Positions 4,141 to 23,876 are shown, numbered from the stretch's first letter. The stretch: DNA of 64,000 nt from Escherichia coli (GCF_002854065.1 NZ_CP024147.1), one strand, 5' to 3'. Numbers and translations are program-made. Notes: generated from the letters alone by a model not told the origin.

Positions 4141-6636
4141 TCAGAAGGTTAATTCTGTTTCCAGCAGCGTCAGGATACTTTGTGCATCTTGCGCGGCAAA
4201 CAATGACTGGCGGAAGTTTTTATTCACCAGTTTACGCGCCAGCTGCGAGAAGACTTTCACATGATTCATCCCTTCGTTAGCACCCAGCGTCAGCATGATC
4301 ACCAGTTCGACTTCGCCCATTTCTGACTGCCAGTCAACCGGTTTCGCCAGCCGGGCAATGCTGATACTGGAATGACGGATCCACTGAGATTTGGTGTGCG
4401 GGATCGCCACGCCAAAACCAACGCCAGTGGTGACAATCTCTTCCCGCTGCCAGACATCCTCTTCCAGCTCGAACGGATGTTCAGTGCGCCCGTTAACGCC
4501 GAGGTTACCGCACAGGAACTGGATCGCCTGCTCTTTATTGCTAAAGGCCTGATCAACGAAGATATTCTCCAGCGCCAGCAGCGGGCGAACGTCTTCTTCC
4601 GGCGTAAAGGCGGTGAGTAACGCTTCAATTTCCTGCGCGCTGCGGCATTCACACGCCTGACGTGCCAGTTCCCGACACGCCTCGCTATCCAATTGACGAA
4701 GCTGGCTTTTCACCGCCGGAATGCGCGGGCTACTCATACTCAGCTCATCCAGGCCCAGCCCAAGCAGTAGCGGCAGATAACGGCTTTCACCGCCCAGTTC
4801 ACCGCAAATGCCTACCCATTTGCCCCGCTGATGCGCAGTGGTAACTATTTGCTGCAACATGCGCAGGAACGATGGCGTAATCGGGTTATATAGCGGCGAT
4901 ACGCGCGGGTTATTACGATCGACCGCATACAGATACTGGGTCATATCGTTGGAGCCGATACTGAAGAAATCGACCTCATCGCAGAAGTGATCGATGATGT
5001 AGCACACCGACGGCACTTCCACCATGATACCCAGCGTAATCGTCTCTGCATGACGCAGGCCATCGCGCTTAAGCTCAACGATCGCTTTTTGGATCTCGCC
5101 CTTCACCCATAAGATCTGATCGAGGCTGTGGACCATCGGGATCATCAACTGGGCGTTGCCGAAACTGGCGGCGCGCAAAATGGCCCGCAGTTGAGTGCGG
5201 AACAGGCCAGCAAATTCCGGGTAAATACGTACCGCGCGATAGCCGAGGAACGGGTTCTCTTCCTGGGGAATATTCAGATAAGGAATGCTTTTATCGCCTC
5301 CGATGTCCATTGTGCGGAAGATAATCGGCTTGTCGCCCGCTGCCAGTAGCACCTGCTGGTAGGCTTCAAATTGCTCCTGCTCGTCCGGCGCGCTGTCGCG
5401 ATCCATATAGAGCATTTCGGTACGGAACAGCCCGACGCCTTCCGCGCCGTTGGCAAACGCGCCAGGCGCTTCCAGAGCGGTGCCAATATTCGCCGCGATA
5501 TCAATACGCTTGTTATCACGGGAATAAGCCAGCTGCGCGGCAGCCTGCGCCTGTTGTTTTTGGCGTTTATCCGCCAGCGTCTGCGCGACCTGATAATAAC
5601 CGCTCACCGCGTCATTCGGGTTAATCGCCAGCACGCCGCACTGGGCGTCAAGCACTGCAGGTTGCCCGGCATAACGGGCAATCGCATCCAGCGGCAGGCC
5701 GCTCAGTACCGGGATCGCCGAGGCGCGGGCCAGAATCAGGGTATGCGAGGTGCGCCCGGTTTTCTCCAGAATCATACCCGCAAGATTTTTTAAATCCAGG
5801 CTTAAAAACTGGCTTGGGGTTAAATCCTCGGCCACCAGAATAGTCGGTTTTTCCAGCACCAGATTGTTGCGCGGCTTCAGTTCCGGCCAGGTAATATGCA
5901 GCAACTGTTCGCTAATATCGCGAATGTCGCTAACACGTTCGCGCAGATAATCGCTGGCAGAAGCAGAAAGTTTGGCGCAAACCTGCTCCATATTGCTGAT
6001 GATCGCCGCCCCCAGCCCCTGATGCTGTTCTGTCATCAGGCGACGGATATTGCCTGCAAATTCATCATCCTGAATCAGCGACAAATGGGCGCTGAGGATA
6101 GTTTTGCTTTCGCCGTCACGCTCACGCAATTGCTGGTTCAGTTGCTCGGCAAGCGTTGCCAGGCTGTGCTCCAGCCGGGTGGAATCTTGCGCACTGGCGG
6201 GGATTGCCCGATAACTGTCGAGGCTGTCGCTTTGTAACAGGGTCAGCGTACCCACGCCGACGCCGCTTGCCAGCACATTGCCGTACAGTAAATCCGGGTT
6301 AAGGCGGCTTAATGAACGCGGCAGCGGATGCGCCGTCAGTTCTGCCTGCGTAGGCTGAACGCTGTCGCTGTCGATAAAGCGCACCTGGATGTACTCTTCC
6401 AGCACGCGCCGCGCCTGCTCTTCATCGCTGCCGCTAATGTTCAGGCTGCAACTGTCATTAAATAGGGTGCCGGTGCCAATCAGCGCCAGCGAGCTTTTGG
6501 CATCGGCCTTTGCGTTCTGGCGATGGTTAATAAAAGTGATTTCGCTTTGCCACTGGCTGCACTGTTCTTTAAGTTCCCACGCCGGACGAGCATGTAGACC
6601 GTTAGGCAAAGGACAGAGAAATTGAATCGTTAACAT
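4141..6636 (-). CDS. fryA: PTS multiphosphoryl transfer protein FryA (HPr - enzyme I - IIA fusion)
   Basis: 831-aa ORF with N-terminal HPr-like domain (GLHARPA), enzyme I PEP-utilising core and C-terminal fructose-type IIA domain. Confidence 0.9.
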   Translation of the reverse strand: MLTIQFLCPLPNGLHARPAWELKEQCSQWQSEITFINHRQNAKADAKSSLALIGTGTLFNDSCSLNISGSDEEQARRVLEEYIQVRFIDSDSVQPTQAELTAHPLPRSLSRLNPDLLYGNVLASGVGVGTLTLLQSDSLDSYRAIPASAQDSTRLEHSLATLAEQLNQQLRERDGESKTILSAHLSLIQDDEFAGNIRRLMTEQHQGLGAAIISNMEQVCAKLSASASDYLRERVSDIRDISEQLLHITWPELKPRNNLVLEKPTILVAEDLTPSQFLSLDLKNLAGMILEKTGRTSHTLILARASAIPVLSGLPLDAIARYAGQPAVLDAQCGVLAINPNDAVSGYYQVAQTLADKRQKQQAQAAAQLAYSRDNKRIDIAANIGTALEAPGAFANGAEGVGLFRTEMLYMDRDSAPDEQEQFEAYQQVLLAAGDKPIIFRTMDIGGDKSIPYLNIPQEENPFLGYRAVRIYPEFAGLFRTQLRAILRAASFGNAQLMIPMVHSLDQILWVKGEIQKAIVELKRDGLRHAETITLGIMVEVPSVCYIIDHFCDEVDFFSIGSNDMTQYLYAVDRNNPRVSPLYNPITPSFLRMLQQIVTTAHQRGKWVGICGELGGESRYLPLLLGLGLDELSMSSPRIPAVKSQLRQLDSEACRELARQACECRSAQEIEALLTAFTPEEDVRPLLALENIFVDQAFSNKEQAIQFLCGNLGVNGRTEHPFELEEDVWQREEIVTTGVGFGVAIPHTKSQWIRHSSISIARLAKPVDWQSEMGEVELVIMLTLGANEGMNHVKVFSQLARKLVNKNFRQSLFAAQDAQSILTLLETELTF

Positions 6637-11780: not shown

Positions 11781-13037
11781 ATGCTCCATCCGCGAGCCAG
11801 AACCATGTTGTTATTATCGCTCCCCGCCGTGGCAATTGGGATTGCGTCCAGTCTTATTCTGATTGTGGTGATGAAAATCGCCTCGGTATTACAGAATTTG
11901 CTCTGGCAACGACTGCCGGGAACTCTGGGGATAGCCCAGGATTCACCTTTCTGGATCATCGGTGTATTAACGCTAACGGGTATTGCGGTGGGGTTGGTTA
12001 TCCGTTTCAGCCAGGGTCATGCCGGACCAGACCCCGCCTGTGAACCGCTGATCGGCGCACCGGTTCCGCCCTTTGCGCTACCTGGACTTATCGTAGCATT
12101 AATTCTCGGTCTTGCTGGCGGCGTCAGCCTGGGGCCGGAACATCCGATCATGACCGTCAATATCGCCCTTGCGGTTGCCATTGGCGCTCGTCTGTTACCG
12201 CGCGTCAACCGAATGGAGTGGACTATTTTAGCCTCTGCCGGAACCATCGGCGCGCTGTTTGGTACACCTGTTGCGGCGGCGTTGATATTTTCGCAAACCT
12301 TAAATGGCAGTAGTGAAGTTCCGCTATGGGATCGTCTTTTTGCGCCGTTAATGGCGGCAGCAGCTGGTGCACTTACTACCGGATTATTTTTCCATCCCCA
12401 TTTTTCACTGCCCATTGCGCATTACGGACAGATGGAAATGACCGATATTCTCAGCGGTGCAATTGTCGCGGCGATTGCCATCGCAGCAGGGATGGTCGCC
12501 GTATGGTGCTTACCACGGTTGCACGCGATGATGCATCAAATGAAAAATCCGGTGCTCGTGCTGGGTATTGGCGGATTTATTCTCGGTATTCTGGGGGTTA
12601 TTGGTGGACCAGTTTCGCTGTTTAAAGGGCTGGATGAGATGCAGCAGATGGTGGCAAATCAGGCTTTCAGCACCAGCGATTACTTTTTGCTGGCGGTAAT
12701 TAAACTTGCCGCCCTGGTCGTTGCTGCCGCCAGTGGCTTTCGCGGTGGACGAATCTTCCCGGCAGTGTTTGTCGCCGTGGCATTAGGGTTGATGCTGCAT
12801 GAGCACGTTCCCGCCGTACCAGCGGCAATAACCGTTTCCTGCGCTATTCTCGGCATCGTGCTGGTGGTAACACGCGATGGCTGGTTAAGTCTTTTTATGG
12901 CGGCAGTCGTTGTACCCAATACCACATTGCTACCGCTGCTCTGTATCGTCATGCTTCCGGCATGGCTGTTATTAGCAGGTAAGCCGATGATGATGGTCAA
13001 TCGTCCGAAGCAACAGCCACCCCACGATAACGTTTAG
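11781..13037 (+). CDS. yfeO: Putative ion channel/transporter YfeO
   Basis: 418-aa polytopic membrane protein, position matches K-12 yfeO. Confidence 0.85.
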
Positions 13038-18841: not shown

Positions 18842-18917
<76 letters not shown>

Positions 18918-18956
18918 ACGATGCGTTTACGTACCAAATTTGCTGGGTGCAAAATT

Positions 18957-19032
<76 letters not shown>

Positions 19033-19613: not shown

Positions 19614-20006
19614 ATGAAAAGATTACGCAATAAAATGACCACCGAAGAACTGGCTGAATGCCTCGGTGTGGCTAAACAAACTGTTAACCGTTGGATCAGA
19701 GAAAAAGGCTGGAAAACGGAAAAATTTCCCGGCGTGAAAGGCGGTCGTGCCAGACTTATTCTGGTCGATACGCAAGTTTGCGAGTTTATTCAGAACACGC
19801 CAGCCTTCCATAACACACCGATGCTTCTGGAAGCCGAAGAACCCCTTGCCGAATACGCACCGGGGATTCGCACTCCTGCTTATCGGCAAATCATAAGCGC
19901 AATAGACAACATGACTCACAGTGAGCAGGAAAAAGTTGCGCAATTTTTGTCACGCGAAGGAATTCGTAATTTCCTTGCTCGTCTCGACATAGATGAATCA
20001 GCTTGA
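19614..20006 (+). CDS. yfeD: YfeD, small HTH DNA-binding protein
   Basis: 130 aa (ELAECLGVAKQTVNRWIREKGW), tandem paralog of yfeC. Confidence 0.85.
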   Translation: MKRLRNKMTTEELAECLGVAKQTVNRWIREKGWKTEKFPGVKGGRARLILVDTQVCEFIQNTPAFHNTPMLLEAEEPLAEYAPGIRTPAYRQIISAIDNMTHSEQEKVAQFLSREGIRNFLARLDIDESA

Positions 20007-21754
20007 CATCCTCCACGCCCTGAATGACGAGGATCCCTGCTACGTTCAGGCTGTCGCCTGAATCATTTCGGTGGGTTCCTGCTTCAACGAGTGGCCTGAC
20101 TGCACCATCTCTCCACAGGCAAGAACGGCGTGCCCCGCCGCTAAAATGTTACGAGCGCCGTTTACATCGGCGTTCGCTGTATATCCACATACCTGGCATC
20201 TGAATTTACTTTGTGACAGGCGATTTTCTTTCGCTGTATGACCACAGCACGCGCAACGCTGGCTTGTGTACGCTGGCGGAACAGCAAGCACCTGACCGCC
20301 TCGCCAGAGCTGCTTGTACTCAAGCTGGCGGCGCATTTCATACCAGCCCTGATCCAGTATCGAACGGTTTAAACCTGATTTTGCCCGGACATTGCGCCCC
20401 GGCTGGCTGACCGTACCCGCTGCTGACTTTGACATGTTGCTGACCTTCAAATCCTCAATGACTATCATTGCGTGGTTTTTGCTGACGGTCGTTGTGACTT
20501 TGTGAAGGTAGTCTCTGCGGATATTTGCGGTACAGGAATGCAGTCGCTGTATTTTGCGTTTCTGCTTCTGCCAGTTATTGCTGAATTTGACCTTGCGGCT
20601 TAACTGTCGCTGAAGTCTCGCCAGCTTCTTCTGGTTTTTCTGAAAACTGTTTACAGGCTCAAAGACTGTGCCATCTGACAGCGTGGCGAGTTTAGCCACG
20701 CCAGCATCCAGTCCGACCATTGATGCTGAAGGGTGAACCGGAGTTGATACTTCACTTTCTGTCTGAATACTGATGTACCACTTACCGCAGGACTGGCTGA
20801 CAGTGACATTTTTCACAACACCCGTGACCTGACGGCTGTTCCGGTAGCGCATCCAGCCAAGTTTCGGCAGAAAAATACGGCTGTTTTCCTGATCGAGCTT
20901 AACGCCCTGCGGGTAGCGGAATGCATCATTCTGTCCCCGCTTTTTGAATCGGGGAAAAGCAGCCCGCTTCCGGAAGAAGTTTTTGTAAGCCCGCTCAAGG
21001 TCTTTCAGTGACTGTTGCAATGGCTGTGAGGGCGAATCTTTAAGCCATTGCGTTTCAGTGGCATTTTTCCACTCAACCAGCCAGGAAGCCATTTTCCCGT
21101 AAGGGATGTATTTATTACCGGCCTCATGATTCTCATTCTGACGTGCCAGAGCACGATTGAAAACGAAACGACATGCGCCTGCGAAGCGCCTCATTTCACG
21201 CTCCTGTTGACCAGCGGGTCTTAACTGGAATTTAAATGCCTGTAGTCGTTTCACAGGCCAAATGATACTTTGGTCTATGAATAAAGAAACCGATATCCGA
21301 CGGGGAAGGCATTGTGTTTTCCTGATGCATGTTCATCTGGTCTTTGTCACCAGATACCGACGTCAGATTTTTGACTATGACGCGACAGAAAAACTACGCA
21401 CTTACTTTTCAAATGTATGTGCTGATTTTGAAGCTGAACTGGTTGAAATGGATGGCGAACCAGATCACGTCCATTTGTTAATTAACTATCCTCCCAAACT
21501 GGCGATATCCAGTCTGGTAAACAGCCTCAAAGGCGTATCGGGTAGGTTACTGCGACGAGATCGACCAGATATTGCAGTCAGGTATTACTACAAAGGCGTT
21601 TTGTGGAGTCCTGGCTATTTTGCCAGTAGCTGCGGAGGTGCGCCAATATCCGTCATCCGCCAATACATTGAACAACAGCAAACACCTGGTCAGGTGGAAA
21701 ACCGCGCCTTATATCCCCGCCCTGAAGGACGGGGTTTTACGGCGCACCGGATAA
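20007..21754 (-). mobile_element. IS200/IS605-family insertion sequence (IS605-type divergent tnpA/tnpB; possibly IS609-like); boundaries approximate
   Basis: Divergent Y1/HUH tnpA and tnpB fill the yfeD-gltX gap; an 18-nt related motif (CGCCCTGAA-T/G-GACG-A/G-GG) occurs in the same orientation at both ends, as expected for IS200/IS605 subterminal hairpins; gltX terminator lies immediately outside. Confidence 0.7.
20046..21254 (-). CDS. tnpB: TnpB (OrfB) RuvC-like RNA-guided endonuclease family protein
   Basis: 402 aa, GTG start; RuvC-I GLDAGV, Ruv[11 protein letters not shown], zinc finger CACCGH...CQVCG, Ruv[14 protein letters not shown] all present. Confidence 0.85.
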
Positions 21755-21804
21755 ATAAAAAACGGCAGGGGTATCTCTCCTGCCGTTTATCTTTTATGCG
21801 CTAA
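21277..21804 (+). CDS. tnpA: IS200/IS605 TnpA (Y1 HUH transposase), C-terminally extended into flanking DNA
   Basis: HVHLVFVTRYRR (HUH motif) and catalytic-Tyr region VIRQYIEQQ; the ORF has no stop inside the element and reads through the gltX terminator to 21804. Confidence 0.7.
   Translation: MNKETDIRRGRHCVFLMHVHLVFVTRYRRQIFDYDATEKLRTYFSNVCADFEAELVEMDGEPDHVHLLINYPPKLAISSLVNSLKGVSGRLLRRDRPDIAVRYYYKGVLWSPGYFASSCGGAPISVIRQYIEQQQTPGQVENRALYPRPEGRGFTAHRINKKRQGYLSCRLSFMR
21755..21787 (-). terminator. gltX rho-independent terminator
   Basis: On minus strand AAACGGCAGG-AGAGATACC-CCTGCCGTTTTTT just downstream of the gltX stop. Confidence 0.7.
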
Positions 21805-23220
21805 TTACTGCTGATTTTCGCGTTCCGCAATAAAAGCCAGCGCTTTGTTGATACGCTCGATACTGCGGGTCTTACCGATTGCGTGAACGGTAACATCCAG
21901 TGCTGGAGACTGCCCCGCACCGGTTACGGCGACACGCAGCGGCATACCAACTTTACCCATACCCACTTCCAGCTCATCCGCCGTCGCCTGAATAGCGTGA
22001 TGAACGTTTTCAGCGGTCCAGTCAGTAATCGCGGCCAGTTTGTCACGAACCACTTCCAGCGGCTGACGCGCTACCGGACGCAGATGTTTTTTCGCCGCAT
22101 CGGCATCGAACTCAGCAAAATCTTCGTAGAAATAACGGCAGCTCTGTGCCATCTCTTTCAGCGTCTTGCAGCGTTCGCCCAGCAGTTTCACCAGATCAGC
22201 CAGCTGCGGGCCGTTACGGGTATCGATATTTTCCTGCTCAATGTGCCACTGTAAGTGAGTAGCAACATACTCCGGCGGCAGCGCGTTAATGTAGTGATGG
22301 TTCAGCCACAGCAGCTTGTCGGTGTTGAACGCACTGGCAGATTTGCTGACGGCATTCAAAGTGAAGTATTTGATCATCTCTTCACGAGTGAAGATTTCCT
22401 GATCGCCGTGGGACCAGCCCAGACGCACCAGATAGTTCAGCAGTGCTTCTGGCAAATAACCGTCATCACGATACTGCATTACGCTGACTGCCCCGTGACG
22501 TTTGGACAGTTTTTTGCCGTCATCGCCGTTGATCATAGAAACGTGCGCGTAAACCGGTACCGGCGCTTTCAGGGCTTTAAGAATATTGATCTGGCGTGGC
22601 GTGTTGTTGATATGGTCTTCGCCACGGATAACGTGGGTGATTTCCATATCCCAGTCATCGACAACCACACAGAAGTTATAGGTTGGGGAACCATCGGTAC
22701 GGCGGATAATAAGATCGTCCAGTTCCTGGTTGCTGAACTCGATCGGACCACGGATCTGATCGTCAAAAACAACAGAACCTTCCTGCGGGTTAGCAAAACG
22801 TACGACACACGGCTCATCATCAGCGTGATGCTCATGACTGTGGCGGCAGCGACCGTCATAACGCGGCTTCTCACCTTTCGCCATTTGCTCTTCGCGCAGC
22901 GCTTCCAGGCGCTCTTTAGAGCAATAGCATTTATAAGCAGTGCCCTCTTCCAGCATCTGATCGATCACCGCGTTGTAGCGATCAAAACGTTTGGTCTGGA
23001 AGTACGGACCTTCATCCCACTCCAGGCTCAGCCAGTTCATGCCATCCATAATGGCTTCGATAGCTTCCGGCGTGGAACGCTCAAGATCGGTGTCTTCAAT
23101 ACGCAGCACGAACTCACCGCCGTGATTACGTGCAAAAAGCCAGGAGTAAAGAGCAGTACGCGCGCCGCCAACGTGCAGATAGCCTGTTGGGCTTGGCGCG
23201 AAGCGAGTTTTGATTTTCAT
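21805..23220 (-). CDS. gltX: Glutamyl-tRNA synthetase
   Basis: 471 aa, [27 protein letters not shown] (HIGH-type motif) and KLSKR (KMSKS motif). Confidence 0.95.
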
Positions 23221-23478: not shown

Positions 23479-23554
23479 GGGTGATTAGCTCAGCTGGGAG
23501 AGCACCTCCCTTACAAGGAGGGGGTCGGCGGTTCGATCCCGTCATCACCCACCA
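23479..23554 (+). tRNA. valU: tRNA-Val (UAC)
   Basis: GGGTGATTAGCTCAGCTGGGAGAGCACCTCCCTTACAAGGAGGGGGTCGGCGGTTCGATCCCGTCATCACCCACCA. Confidence 0.95.
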
Positions 23555-23598
23555 ACTGCTTTATGTAGTCTCCGCCGTGTAGCAAGAAATTGAGAAGT

Positions 23599-23674
23599 GG
23601 GTGATTAGCTCAGCTGGGAGAGCACCTCCCTTACAAGGAGGGGGTCGGCGGTTCGATCCCGTCATCACCCACCA
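23599..23674 (+). tRNA. valX: tRNA-Val (UAC)
   Basis: Identical copy of valU. Confidence 0.95.
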
Positions 23675-23720
23675 CTTTCTCACCAGCTAAATTTCTTGTA
23701 AAAATGTGAAGTACCGAAGT

Positions 23721-23796
23721 GGGTGATTAGCTCAGCTGGGAGAGCACCTCCCTTACAAGGAGGGGGTCGGCGGTTCGATCCCGTCATCACCCACCA
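23721..23796 (+). tRNA. valY: tRNA-Val (UAC)
   Basis: Identical copy of valU. Confidence 0.95.
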
Positions 23797-23800
23797 CTTC

Positions 23801-23876
23801 GGGTCGTTAGCTCAGTTGGTAGAGCAGTTGACTTTTAATCAATTGGTCGCAGGTTCGAATCCTGCACGACCCACCA
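23801..23876 (+). tRNA. lysV: tRNA-Lys (UUU)
   Basis: GGGTCGTTAGCTCAGTTGGTAGAGCAGTTGACTTTTAATCAATTGGTCGCAGGTTCGAATCCTGCACGACCCACCA, 4 nt after valY. Confidence 0.95.

Follow-up and report, generated by a model that had tools for sequence, protein, structure and literature searches.

Subterminal hairpins at the two ends of an IS609 copy located between yfeD and gltX in Escherichia coli

An insertion sequence lies between yfeD and gltX in the 64-kb stretch of E. coli chromosome analysed here (hereafter the window), and related 18-nt motifs are found at its two ends. The question raised by this locus is whether these motifs are the same-strand subterminal palindromes on which a transposase of the IS200/IS605 family acts, as the initial annotation had proposed, and whether both could still be recognised by the transposase TnpA. 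The gene order is yfeA/pdeA, two tRNA-Ala genes, yfeC, yfeD, the insertion sequence, gltX and a tRNA-Val/Lys cluster, and the locus is defined by the following features:

19614-20006, plus strand: yfeD, whose last four bases (the T of a GCT codon and the TGA stop) are provided by the right end of the insertion sequence.
20003-21750, minus strand: complete copy of IS609 (IS200/IS605 family), 1748 bp, with its left end (LE) at 21750 and its right end (RE) at 20003, its limits having been set with the aid of one empty allele and copies at five further sites.
21751-21754, minus strand: target TTAT (ATAA on the plus strand), lying in flanking DNA and not duplicated; putative left cleavage site CL and predicted TnpB TAM.
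21805-23220, minus strand: gltX.

The first motif, ACGCCCTGAATGACGAGG, was found at 20015-20032 as annotated, and the second, CCGCCCTGAAGGACGGGG, at 21717-21734 and not at 21716-21733, the earlier position being off by one. Their relatedness held, with 15 of 18 positions matching; in the correct register they differ at three positions and not at about four. When the two 60-nt termini of the element were compared, the best ungapped 18-mer match was 16/18, a value reached by none of 2000 shuffles (maximum 14), and the best match in the inverted orientation was only 12/18, in agreement with the same orientation having been assigned to both ends. Extended to 20 nt, CCACGCCCTGAATGACGAGG (20013-20032) and CCCCGCCCTGAAGGACGGGG (21715-21734) were the sole matches to the end motif in the window, and the 20-nt pattern CCNCGCCCTGAANGACGNGG gave exactly two matches in the 64 kb, both on the plus strand, with 0.05 expected by chance. 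Since no shuffle equalled the observed match, the match is direct and only two places carry it, the similarity is real, direct and specific to both places.

The boundaries of the element were determined by megablast of positions 19950-21800 against 5,426 complete E. coli genomes and by comparison with an empty yfeD-gltX allele (L001) and with copies at ydcO-ydcL (the K-12 copy, L002), yeaQ-yeaR (L003), a TetR pseudogene (L004), yedK (L005) and yidH (L006). With a solidus marking the junction, the empty site reads GAATCAGC/ATAAATAAAAAA, the junction being ...CAGC/ATAA..., and the occupied site reads GAATCAGC/TTGACATCC...GCGCACCGG/ATAAATAAAAAACGG versus GAATCAGC/ATAAATAAAAAACGG in the empty one. 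The other five copies showed unrelated flank, then TTGACATCC...GCGCACC(G/A)G, then ATAA, then unrelated flank. In the megablast search, copies at other sites matched the query from position 53/54 to positions 1805-1807. The ATAA at 21751-21754 is therefore the target TTAT, outside the element; the empty site has a single copy of it, and in each of the six occupied sites it directly adjoins the LE. No target duplication was seen at the RE flank when empty and occupied sites were compared, and no terminal inverted repeats were present in the copy at 20003-21750. The two hairpin-bearing motifs lie 10 nt (RE) and 16 nt (LE) inside the ends so defined, being neither deep within the element nor in flanking chromosome.

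The 3' end of yfeD is GCA TAA in the empty allele versus GCT TGA in the occupied one. The yfeD protein is unchanged, because the tip of the element supplies the last base of the final codon and a new stop codon, and the same protein accession (WP_000826499.1) is common to both alleles.

GC-rich extragenic palindromes abound in E. coli, and TnpA-like proteins associated with REP sequences are known (PMC3333891); hence two similar GC-rich motifs might be a coincidence or members of a genome-wide REP-type repeat unrelated to the element. In REP/BIME systems with RAYT (TnpA_REP; PMC3333891, PMC8266576), GC-rich hairpins follow a guide-like tetranucleotide and are recognised by a Y1 HUH enzyme. Unlike these, the hairpins of IS609 form a single LE/RE pair on either side of tnpA and tnpB, the whole moving as one unit, and no solo copy of the end motif was found in the 64-kb window. 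None of the 2000 shuffles reached the observed similarity, the only two copies in 64 kb fall within the mobile unit, and both accompany the element at six different chromosomal sites, the empty site having neither. The chance and REP readings were rejected on the shuffles, the two-copy count and the empty-site comparison, and their probability is practically nil.

The element between yfeD and gltX is IS609, as judged by its identity to the copy of K-12 named so in the literature (PMC5009759, PMC2891674) and by RefSeq names, some copies being labelled "IS609 family transposase". It is 97.9% identical in nucleotide sequence to the MG1655 K-12 copy over query positions 54-1806, that is, over the whole 1.75 kb. 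The K-12 copy (insQ/ydcM and the tnpA pseudogene ynck) shares with that of the window the ends TTGACATCC...CACCGG, the TTAT target, divergent tnpA and tnpB, and a 402-aa TnpB. It differs in its location, ydcO-ydcL versus yfeD-gltX, and in its tnpA, which has a GTG start and R91* (PMC2891674) versus an uninterrupted reading frame in the window. IS609 was found in 5,410 of the 5,426 E. coli genomes, at 12,732 places of which 563 are on plasmids; it occupies six or more chromosomal sites in addition to plasmids.

Two genes are carried by the element:

20046-21254, minus strand: tnpB (insQ), 402 aa, intact, its 3' end facing the RE.
21277-21804, plus strand: tnpA (Y1 HUH transposase), divergent from tnpB and uninterrupted, with an alternative ATG at 21262.

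TnpB showed the Pfam domains OrfB_IS605 (4.8e-34), Cas12f1-like_TNB (5.8e-24) and HTH_OrfB_IS605 (3.8e-14), and its product is annotated in RefSeq as an RNA-guided endonuclease InsQ/TnpB family protein. TnpA matched Y1_Tnp over the full length of the model (3.5e-41, 1-121/121), and its translation contains HVH (in HVHLL) and the Tyr of RQYIEQQ, that is, the HUH motif and the catalytic Tyr. The ancestral tnpA stop TAG is now CAG (21698-21700) in all E. coli copies examined except the yidH one. As a consequence of this loss the reading frame, of 176-180 aa, runs through the LE into the flank, in the window up to 21804 with a 38-aa flank-dependent tail; RefSeq flags tnpA as "missing C-terminus" in an identical record. 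Furthermore, tnpA is broken in five of the six copies compared (window and L002-L006): by R91* in K-12 and at yedK, by E57* at yeaQ-yeaR, and by frameshift in the TetR pseudogene and yidH copies. By contrast with tnpA, tnpB is intact in the window copy and in most sampled copies. The K-12 IS609 did not transpose in mutation-accumulation lines (PMC5009759, PMC2891674).

Given the direction of tnpB, towards 20003, and the conserved tetranucleotide just beyond the opposite end, the top strand of IS609 corresponds to the minus strand of the window. The LE is thus on the right of the window and the RE on its left, and the order on the top strand is TTAT/LE...RE-TCAA/. Read on this strand the LE is TTAT/CCGGTGCGCCGT-AAAA-(CCCCGTCC TTCA GGGCGGGG)-ATATAAGGCGC and the RE is ...CAGG-GGAT-(CCTCGTCA TTCA GGGCGTGG)-AGGATG-TCAA/GCTGATTC, where the following elements were located:

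21715-21734, minus strand: left-end imperfect palindrome IP_L, CCCCGTCC TTCA GGGCGGGG, its sixth pair being a T.G; the second motif lies within it.
21735-21738, minus strand: putative left guide tetranucleotide GL = AAAA, directly 5' of the foot of IP_L and 12 nt from the end of the element.
21704-21745, minus strand: outer 5-bp helix GCGCC (21704-21708)/GGCGC (21741-21745), enclosing IP_L, GL and a conserved ATATAA.
20013-20032, minus strand: right-end imperfect palindrome IP_R, CCTCGTCA TTCA GGGCGTGG, with pairs 3 (T.T) and 8 (A.G) broken; it contains the first motif.
20033-20036, minus strand: putative right guide tetranucleotide GR = GGAT, 5' of the foot of IP_R.
20003-20012, minus strand: right-end linker AGGATG and putative right cleavage site CR = TCAA (20003-20006), cleavage being predicted 10 nt 3' of the foot of IP_R.

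The LE of the window copy is the E. coli consensus; in K-12 its hairpin bears one extra substitution (CCCCATCC) which is not found in the window. IP_L is an imperfect hairpin of eight pairs, with a predicted energy of -7.5 kcal/mol on the minus strand, and 5 of 200 shuffles folded as well. A weak Rfam match (sot0042, E = 0.6), below the gathering score, overlaps the LE hairpin.

The RE of the window copy departs from the canonical one, CCACGTCC TTCA GGGCGTGG, by A to T at pair 3 and C to A at pair 8, so that its hairpin has two extra mismatches relative to that of K-12 (CCTCGTCA versus CCACGTCC). Only five Watson-Crick pairs and one T.G remain in the homologous register. The canonical RE folds at -7.7 kcal/mol, with none of 200 shuffles as good, versus -3.2 kcal/mol and 41 of 200 for the window RE, which is predicted to form a 6-bp stem in a shifted register, ATCCTC/GAGGAT, with half of GR taken up in it. 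Consequently, the capacity to form a short stem, earlier attributed to both motifs, is borne out for the left-end motif, and the right-end motif in its present form folds no better than shuffled sequence.

The structure of both ends was then assessed in relatives, a scan of viral contigs with TnpA having yielded 36 loci of 44-83% protein identity. The right end of most of them consists of GAAT, a hairpin of 19-21 nt and AGGATGTCAA, where similarity stops; of the 22 distinct right ends, 19 have retained AGGATGTCAA, the conserved block ending with it in every case. GR is GAAT in the viral-contig relatives ending in TCAA, and GGAT in all E. coli copies examined, with a G.T in place of A-T with T(-4). 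In the alignment of the 22 distinct right ends (A1), 96.6% of the IP_R cells were paired and compensatory changes occurred at five of eight pairs, a result reached by none of 500 shuffles (slid controls, 43-61%); the same helix was predicted independently by RNAalifold. The window right end is the most degenerate of the 22, its row giving two of the six unpaired cells.

In the corresponding left-end alignment (A2), 93% of the IP_L cells were paired, with compensatory changes at four of eight pairs, and 94% of the cells of the outer helix were paired. Pair 15-55 of this helix is CG in 16 sequences and UA in six, and pair 14-56 also changes on both sides. When the LE hairpin, the outer helix and the guide/target pairs were taken together, 93.9% were paired with eight pairs compensated, and no shuffle of 500 reached this value. 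It is conceivable, if unlikely, that this covarying outer helix around IP_L and GL is a new structural component of the transpososome at the left end.

The guide and target tetranucleotides vary together in the relatives as follows:

GL AAAA, target TTAT: IS609 and many relatives.
GL AAAG, target TTAC: L013.
GL AAAC, target TTAG: L033-L035.
GL CAAG, target TGAC: the L015-L019 group.
GL CAAA, target TGAT: L020, L023 and L024.

Thus, five different GL/CL pairs were found in 22 distinct left ends, the LE boundary being ambiguous by one base and set with the pairing rule in mind in the CAAG/TGAC and CAAA/TGAT groups, and there were two exceptions, L021 with TTAT beside CAAA and L006 with GL destroyed. 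The boundary of IS609 itself was fixed independently of the rule. Pair CL(-3):GL(1) was UA in 17 sequences and GC in four, and pair CL(-1):GL(4) was UA in 16, CG in three and GC in two. On this comparative evidence, the cleavage sites of IS609 are probably recognised by pairing with the tetranucleotides 5' of the hairpin feet, and the covariation provides a clean natural confirmation, in an enterobacterial lineage, of the rule known from IS608 as "resetting the site".

A role of the hairpins as transcription terminators, that of the LE with its TTTT serving tnpA and that of the RE serving tnpB or yfeD, was also considered. On the plus strand the LE hairpin reads CCCCGCCC-TGAA-GGACGGGG, is followed by TTTTAC and lies directly downstream of the region of tnpA encoding the catalytic domain, as a terminator might. 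Yet this TTTT is the complement of GL and covaries with the target in relatives (TTTG, CTTT and others), which is unexpected for a U-tract, and the tnpA reading frame crosses the LE hairpin in the E. coli copies. The RE hairpin is without a T-run on either strand, and neither hairpin was called by the terminator consensus scan, the sole call of which was the bidirectional yfeD/gltX terminator at 21760-21788. We therefore regard terminator function as very unlikely.

These end structures were compared with those of the Helicobacter pylori element IS608, which serves as the mechanistic model of the family, on the basis of features stated in words in PMC3201880 and PMC5934647. In IS608, TnpA binds subterminal imperfect palindromes and CL, TTAC, lies 19 nt 5' of IP_L (PMC3201880, PMC5934647); CR, TCAA, is cleaved 10 nt 3' of IP_R, and A-10 and G-9 3' of IP_R form base triples (PMC3201880). 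The guides 5' of the hairpin feet are AAAG (GL) and GAAT (GR) (PMC3201880, PMC5934647), and cleavage site and guide form the pairs C(-4):G(2) and C(-3):G(1), A(-2) being unpaired (PMC3201880, PMC5934647); the pair C(-1):G(4) follows from the IS608 sequences. IS609 resembles IS608 in its direct subterminal palindromes, in TCAA at a spacing of 10 nt with A-10 and G-9, in guides preceding both feet, the third base of each being A, in an A at -2 that stays unpaired in either cleavage site, and in insertion 3' of a TTAN tetranucleotide without duplication. Its own pairing would be C:G, T.G and A:T for GGAT with TCAA, and T:A three times for AAAA with TTAT. It differs in TTAT/AAAA versus TTAC/AAAG, in CL lying 16 nt versus 19 nt from IP_L, in GR (GGAT versus GAAT), in the sequence and loop of the hairpins, in that no extrahelical T is evident, in the extra outer helix around IP_L, and in tnpA being divergent from tnpB versus co-directional.

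All these features make it very probable that the two motifs are IP_L and IP_R of the IS609 copy at 20003-21750, on which TnpA would act in the manner of IS608. If IS608 is taken as the model, both hairpins would be bound on the single-stranded top strand by a dimeric Y1 HUH TnpA, and the cleavage sites would be read through DNA-DNA pairing and not by the protein, AAAA (GL) with TTAT (CL), which lies in flanking DNA at 16 nt 5' of IP_L, and GGAT (GR) with TCAA (CR) at the tip of the element, 10 nt 3' of IP_R. In this "peel and paste" scheme the element would be excised as a single-stranded circle and inserted again 3' of a further TTAT, which would not be duplicated. The hallmark of IS200/IS605 elements invoked at the outset, same-strand subterminal palindromes in place of terminal inverted repeats, agrees with both the boundaries and the hairpin covariation.

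End hairpins of this kind are an already known feature of a catalogued element and of a known mechanism, and in that sense the finding is ordinary, textbook material which leaves the understanding of the family unchanged. A literature search for descriptions of the IS609 ends returned surveys and statements on the inactivity of the K-12 copy only. The gain is one of annotation: the exact boundaries of IS609, its strand, its TTAT target, its guide tetranucleotides and the weakened right end of the window copy.

Between the tnpB stop and the RE boundary, no more than 30 nt from the latter, lies the RE hairpin, the sequence of which may also belong to a TnpB guide RNA. The predicted features are:

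20003-20119, minus strand: predicted omega/reRNA scaffold, overlapping the 3' end of tnpB, ending at the RE boundary and including the IP_R stem-loop.
19983-20002, minus strand: predicted TnpB guide segment GCTGATTCATCTATGTCGAG, lying just beyond the RE in the 3' flank of the top strand, placed according to the architecture of PMC8612924.

The guide RNAs of TnpB originate in the RE and terminate at the edge of the transposon (PMC8612924); RNAs derived from RAGATH-18 guide TnpBs (PMC11061315). No family was found by Rfam in IS609 at its gathering score, and a RAGATH-18-like motif was detected at 20076-20119 with 29.5 bits (E = 0.0076), below the gathering score of 44.9. An GAAGCAGGAACCC motif in the predicted scaffold is conserved in relatives. 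The TnpB/omegaRNA of ISDra2 (Deinococcus radiodurans) and the IS607 TnpBs guided by RAGATH-18 reRNA (PMC8612924, PMC11061315) resemble IS609 in having TnpB beside the RE and a conserved structured region over the 3' end of tnpB that stops at the RE boundary, and in that the target motif would act as TAM. IS609 differs from these systems in its sub-threshold Rfam match and in its predicted TAM, TTAT. The TAM of ISDra2 is TTGAT. In IS609, IP_R would be transcribed as the last stem-loop of the omegaRNA, the scaffold of which would end at 20003, with the yfeD flank as guide and TTAT as TAM. With this guide and TAM the ribonucleoprotein would target the empty allele, and the analysis thus offers a predicted TAM and guide for an E. 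coli TnpB (InsQ).

It is possible, if the less favoured interpretation, that the RE motif is conserved chiefly for a function in RNA, as the stem-loop closing the TnpB omega/reRNA scaffold, and not as a DNA site of TnpA, its likeness to the LE motif being a relic in an immobile copy. The RE motif lies where omegaRNA scaffolds end, with the RAGATH-18-like motif just upstream, tnpB is intact in the window and most sampled copies with tnpA broken in five of the six compared, and the top-strand mismatches are T.G, good pairs in RNA. On the other hand, an RNA role of the RE leaves room for a DNA role. The LE hairpin is in no TnpB transcript, yet it belongs to the same sequence family, with the same loop and position of the T.G; the invariant AGGATGTCAA and the GAAT/GGAT flanks match the TnpA geometry of IS608; and the two substitutions of the window break the stem in RNA as well (U.U and A.G). 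A role in RNA only is compatible with the decayed copies and leaves the LE twin and the IS608-like DNA geometry unexplained.

With IP_L and IP_R taken as TnpA-binding hairpins, the earlier suggestion that TnpA can still recognise the ends has good support in the case of the LE. For the RE of the window copy recognition is uncertain, its hairpin carrying the two stem-breaking substitutions, and the excision competence of this copy is doubtful for that reason. Three versions of the RE hairpin were found, CCACGTCC (canonical), CCTCGTCC and CCTCGTCA (window). RE variants were counted as exact 40-mers in the 5,426 genomes and their flanks were sampled. The canonical RE was present at 5,547 places in 4,327 genomes, the window variant at 1,590 places in 1,562 genomes, and a one-substitution variant at 1,105 places, at ydcO, yedK and yfeD. 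The sampled places of the window variant were yfeD-gltX or yeaQ-yeaR, apart from seven on plasmids. Since the chromosomal sites yfeD and ydcO bear different RE variants in different strains, mutation or gene conversion in situ fits as well as transposition after mutation.

The E. coli IS609 might be moving from a mobile element to a fixed TnpB/omegaRNA locus, its RE changes having been selected to stop excision by TnpA or to retune the omegaRNA and not being neutral decay; taken jointly with the proposed role of the outer helix, we consider this unlikely. Pointers to such a shift are the broken tnpA of five of the six copies together with its lost stop, the weakened GR (GGAT), the two substitutions that break the RE stem in about 1,560 genomes and favour a shifted stem sequestering GR, and an intact tnpB in most copies.

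The hairpin at the left end of the IS609 copy, together with its guide tetranucleotide AAAA and the conserved ATATAA, was found to be enclosed by a second helix:

21704-21708 and 21741-21745: outer helix GCGCC/GGCGC, 5 bp (columns 14-18 and 52-56 of the left-end alignment A2)

This outer helix covaries in the relatives, one of its pairs being UA in six sequences of A2 and CG in 16. The IS608 description consulted for comparison is without a counterpart of it. The outer helix may act in the DNA transpososome, or it may be a 3' structure of the tnpA mRNA.

The left end of the copy at the yidH site (L006, NZ_CP059283.1) has GGGGATATAAG in place of GGGGTTTTAC (equivalent window positions 21735-21740), which destroys the left guide and makes the left end a perfect long palindrome, GCGCCTTATATCCCCG...CGGGGATATAAGGCGC; judged from the sequence, the change looks like a template-switch "quasipalindrome correction". 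In two viral-contig relatives, L014 and L018 (IMGVR_UViG_2516493029_000002, where a pair of related elements is separated by about 3.9 kb), the left-end consensus downstream of tnpA is lost within the hairpin (CCCCGGCCAAACTCGCCGG...), as if other sequence had inserted there. Rfam sot0042 gave a weak match (15.3 bits, E = 0.6) at 21714-21835 on the minus strand; since its 3' end aligns with the left-end hairpin (CCCCGUCCUUCAGGGCGGGG), an IS200/IS605 end may be among the sequences of that family.

The tnpA stop codon is TAG in the relatives and in L006, whereas the E. coli IS609 copies have CAG (21698-21700), so that the reading frame continues through the left-end hairpin into any adjoining flank. 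In the window copy this read-through (21701-21804) adds 38 residues and ends within the gltX terminator region. When the five copies at other E. coli sites (L002-L006) were compared with window positions 21262-21700, five of the six elements proved to have an inactivated tnpA, through various lesions (R91*, E57*, frameshifts and ATG to GTG). The tnpB gene (402 aa, 20046-21254) is annotated as intact in most of the six, which suggests that TnpB is kept independently of the transposase. Only 7 nt separate the tnpB start (GTG, 21254, minus strand) from the first tnpA ATG (21262, plus strand), and therefore the promoter of each gene must sit within the other; a consensus scan gave no sigma-70-like site there.

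At the right end, the insertion split the last yfeD codon (20000-20006), GCA TAA of the empty allele becoming GCT TGA in the occupied one. The final T and the TGA come from the right-end tip of the element (TTGA, the reverse complement of the cleavage site TCAA), and the YfeD protein is the same in both alleles (WP_000826499.1). Since the insertion moved the yfeD terminator 1.75 kb off, yfeD transcription should continue antisense into tnpB. The right guide (20033-20036) is GGAT in all the E. coli IS609 copies examined in the right-end alignment A1, in contrast to GAAT in IS608 and in viral-contig relatives with a TCAA end; the T(-4):A pair thereby becomes T.G.

The insertion neighbourhood contains two groups of tRNA genes:

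18842-19032, minus strand: two tRNA-Ala(GGC) genes, upstream of yfeC/yfeD
23479-23876, plus strand: three tRNA-Val(TAC) genes and tRNA-Lys(TTT), beyond gltX

Such tRNA genes flanking yfeC/yfeD and gltX are the usual E. coli context.
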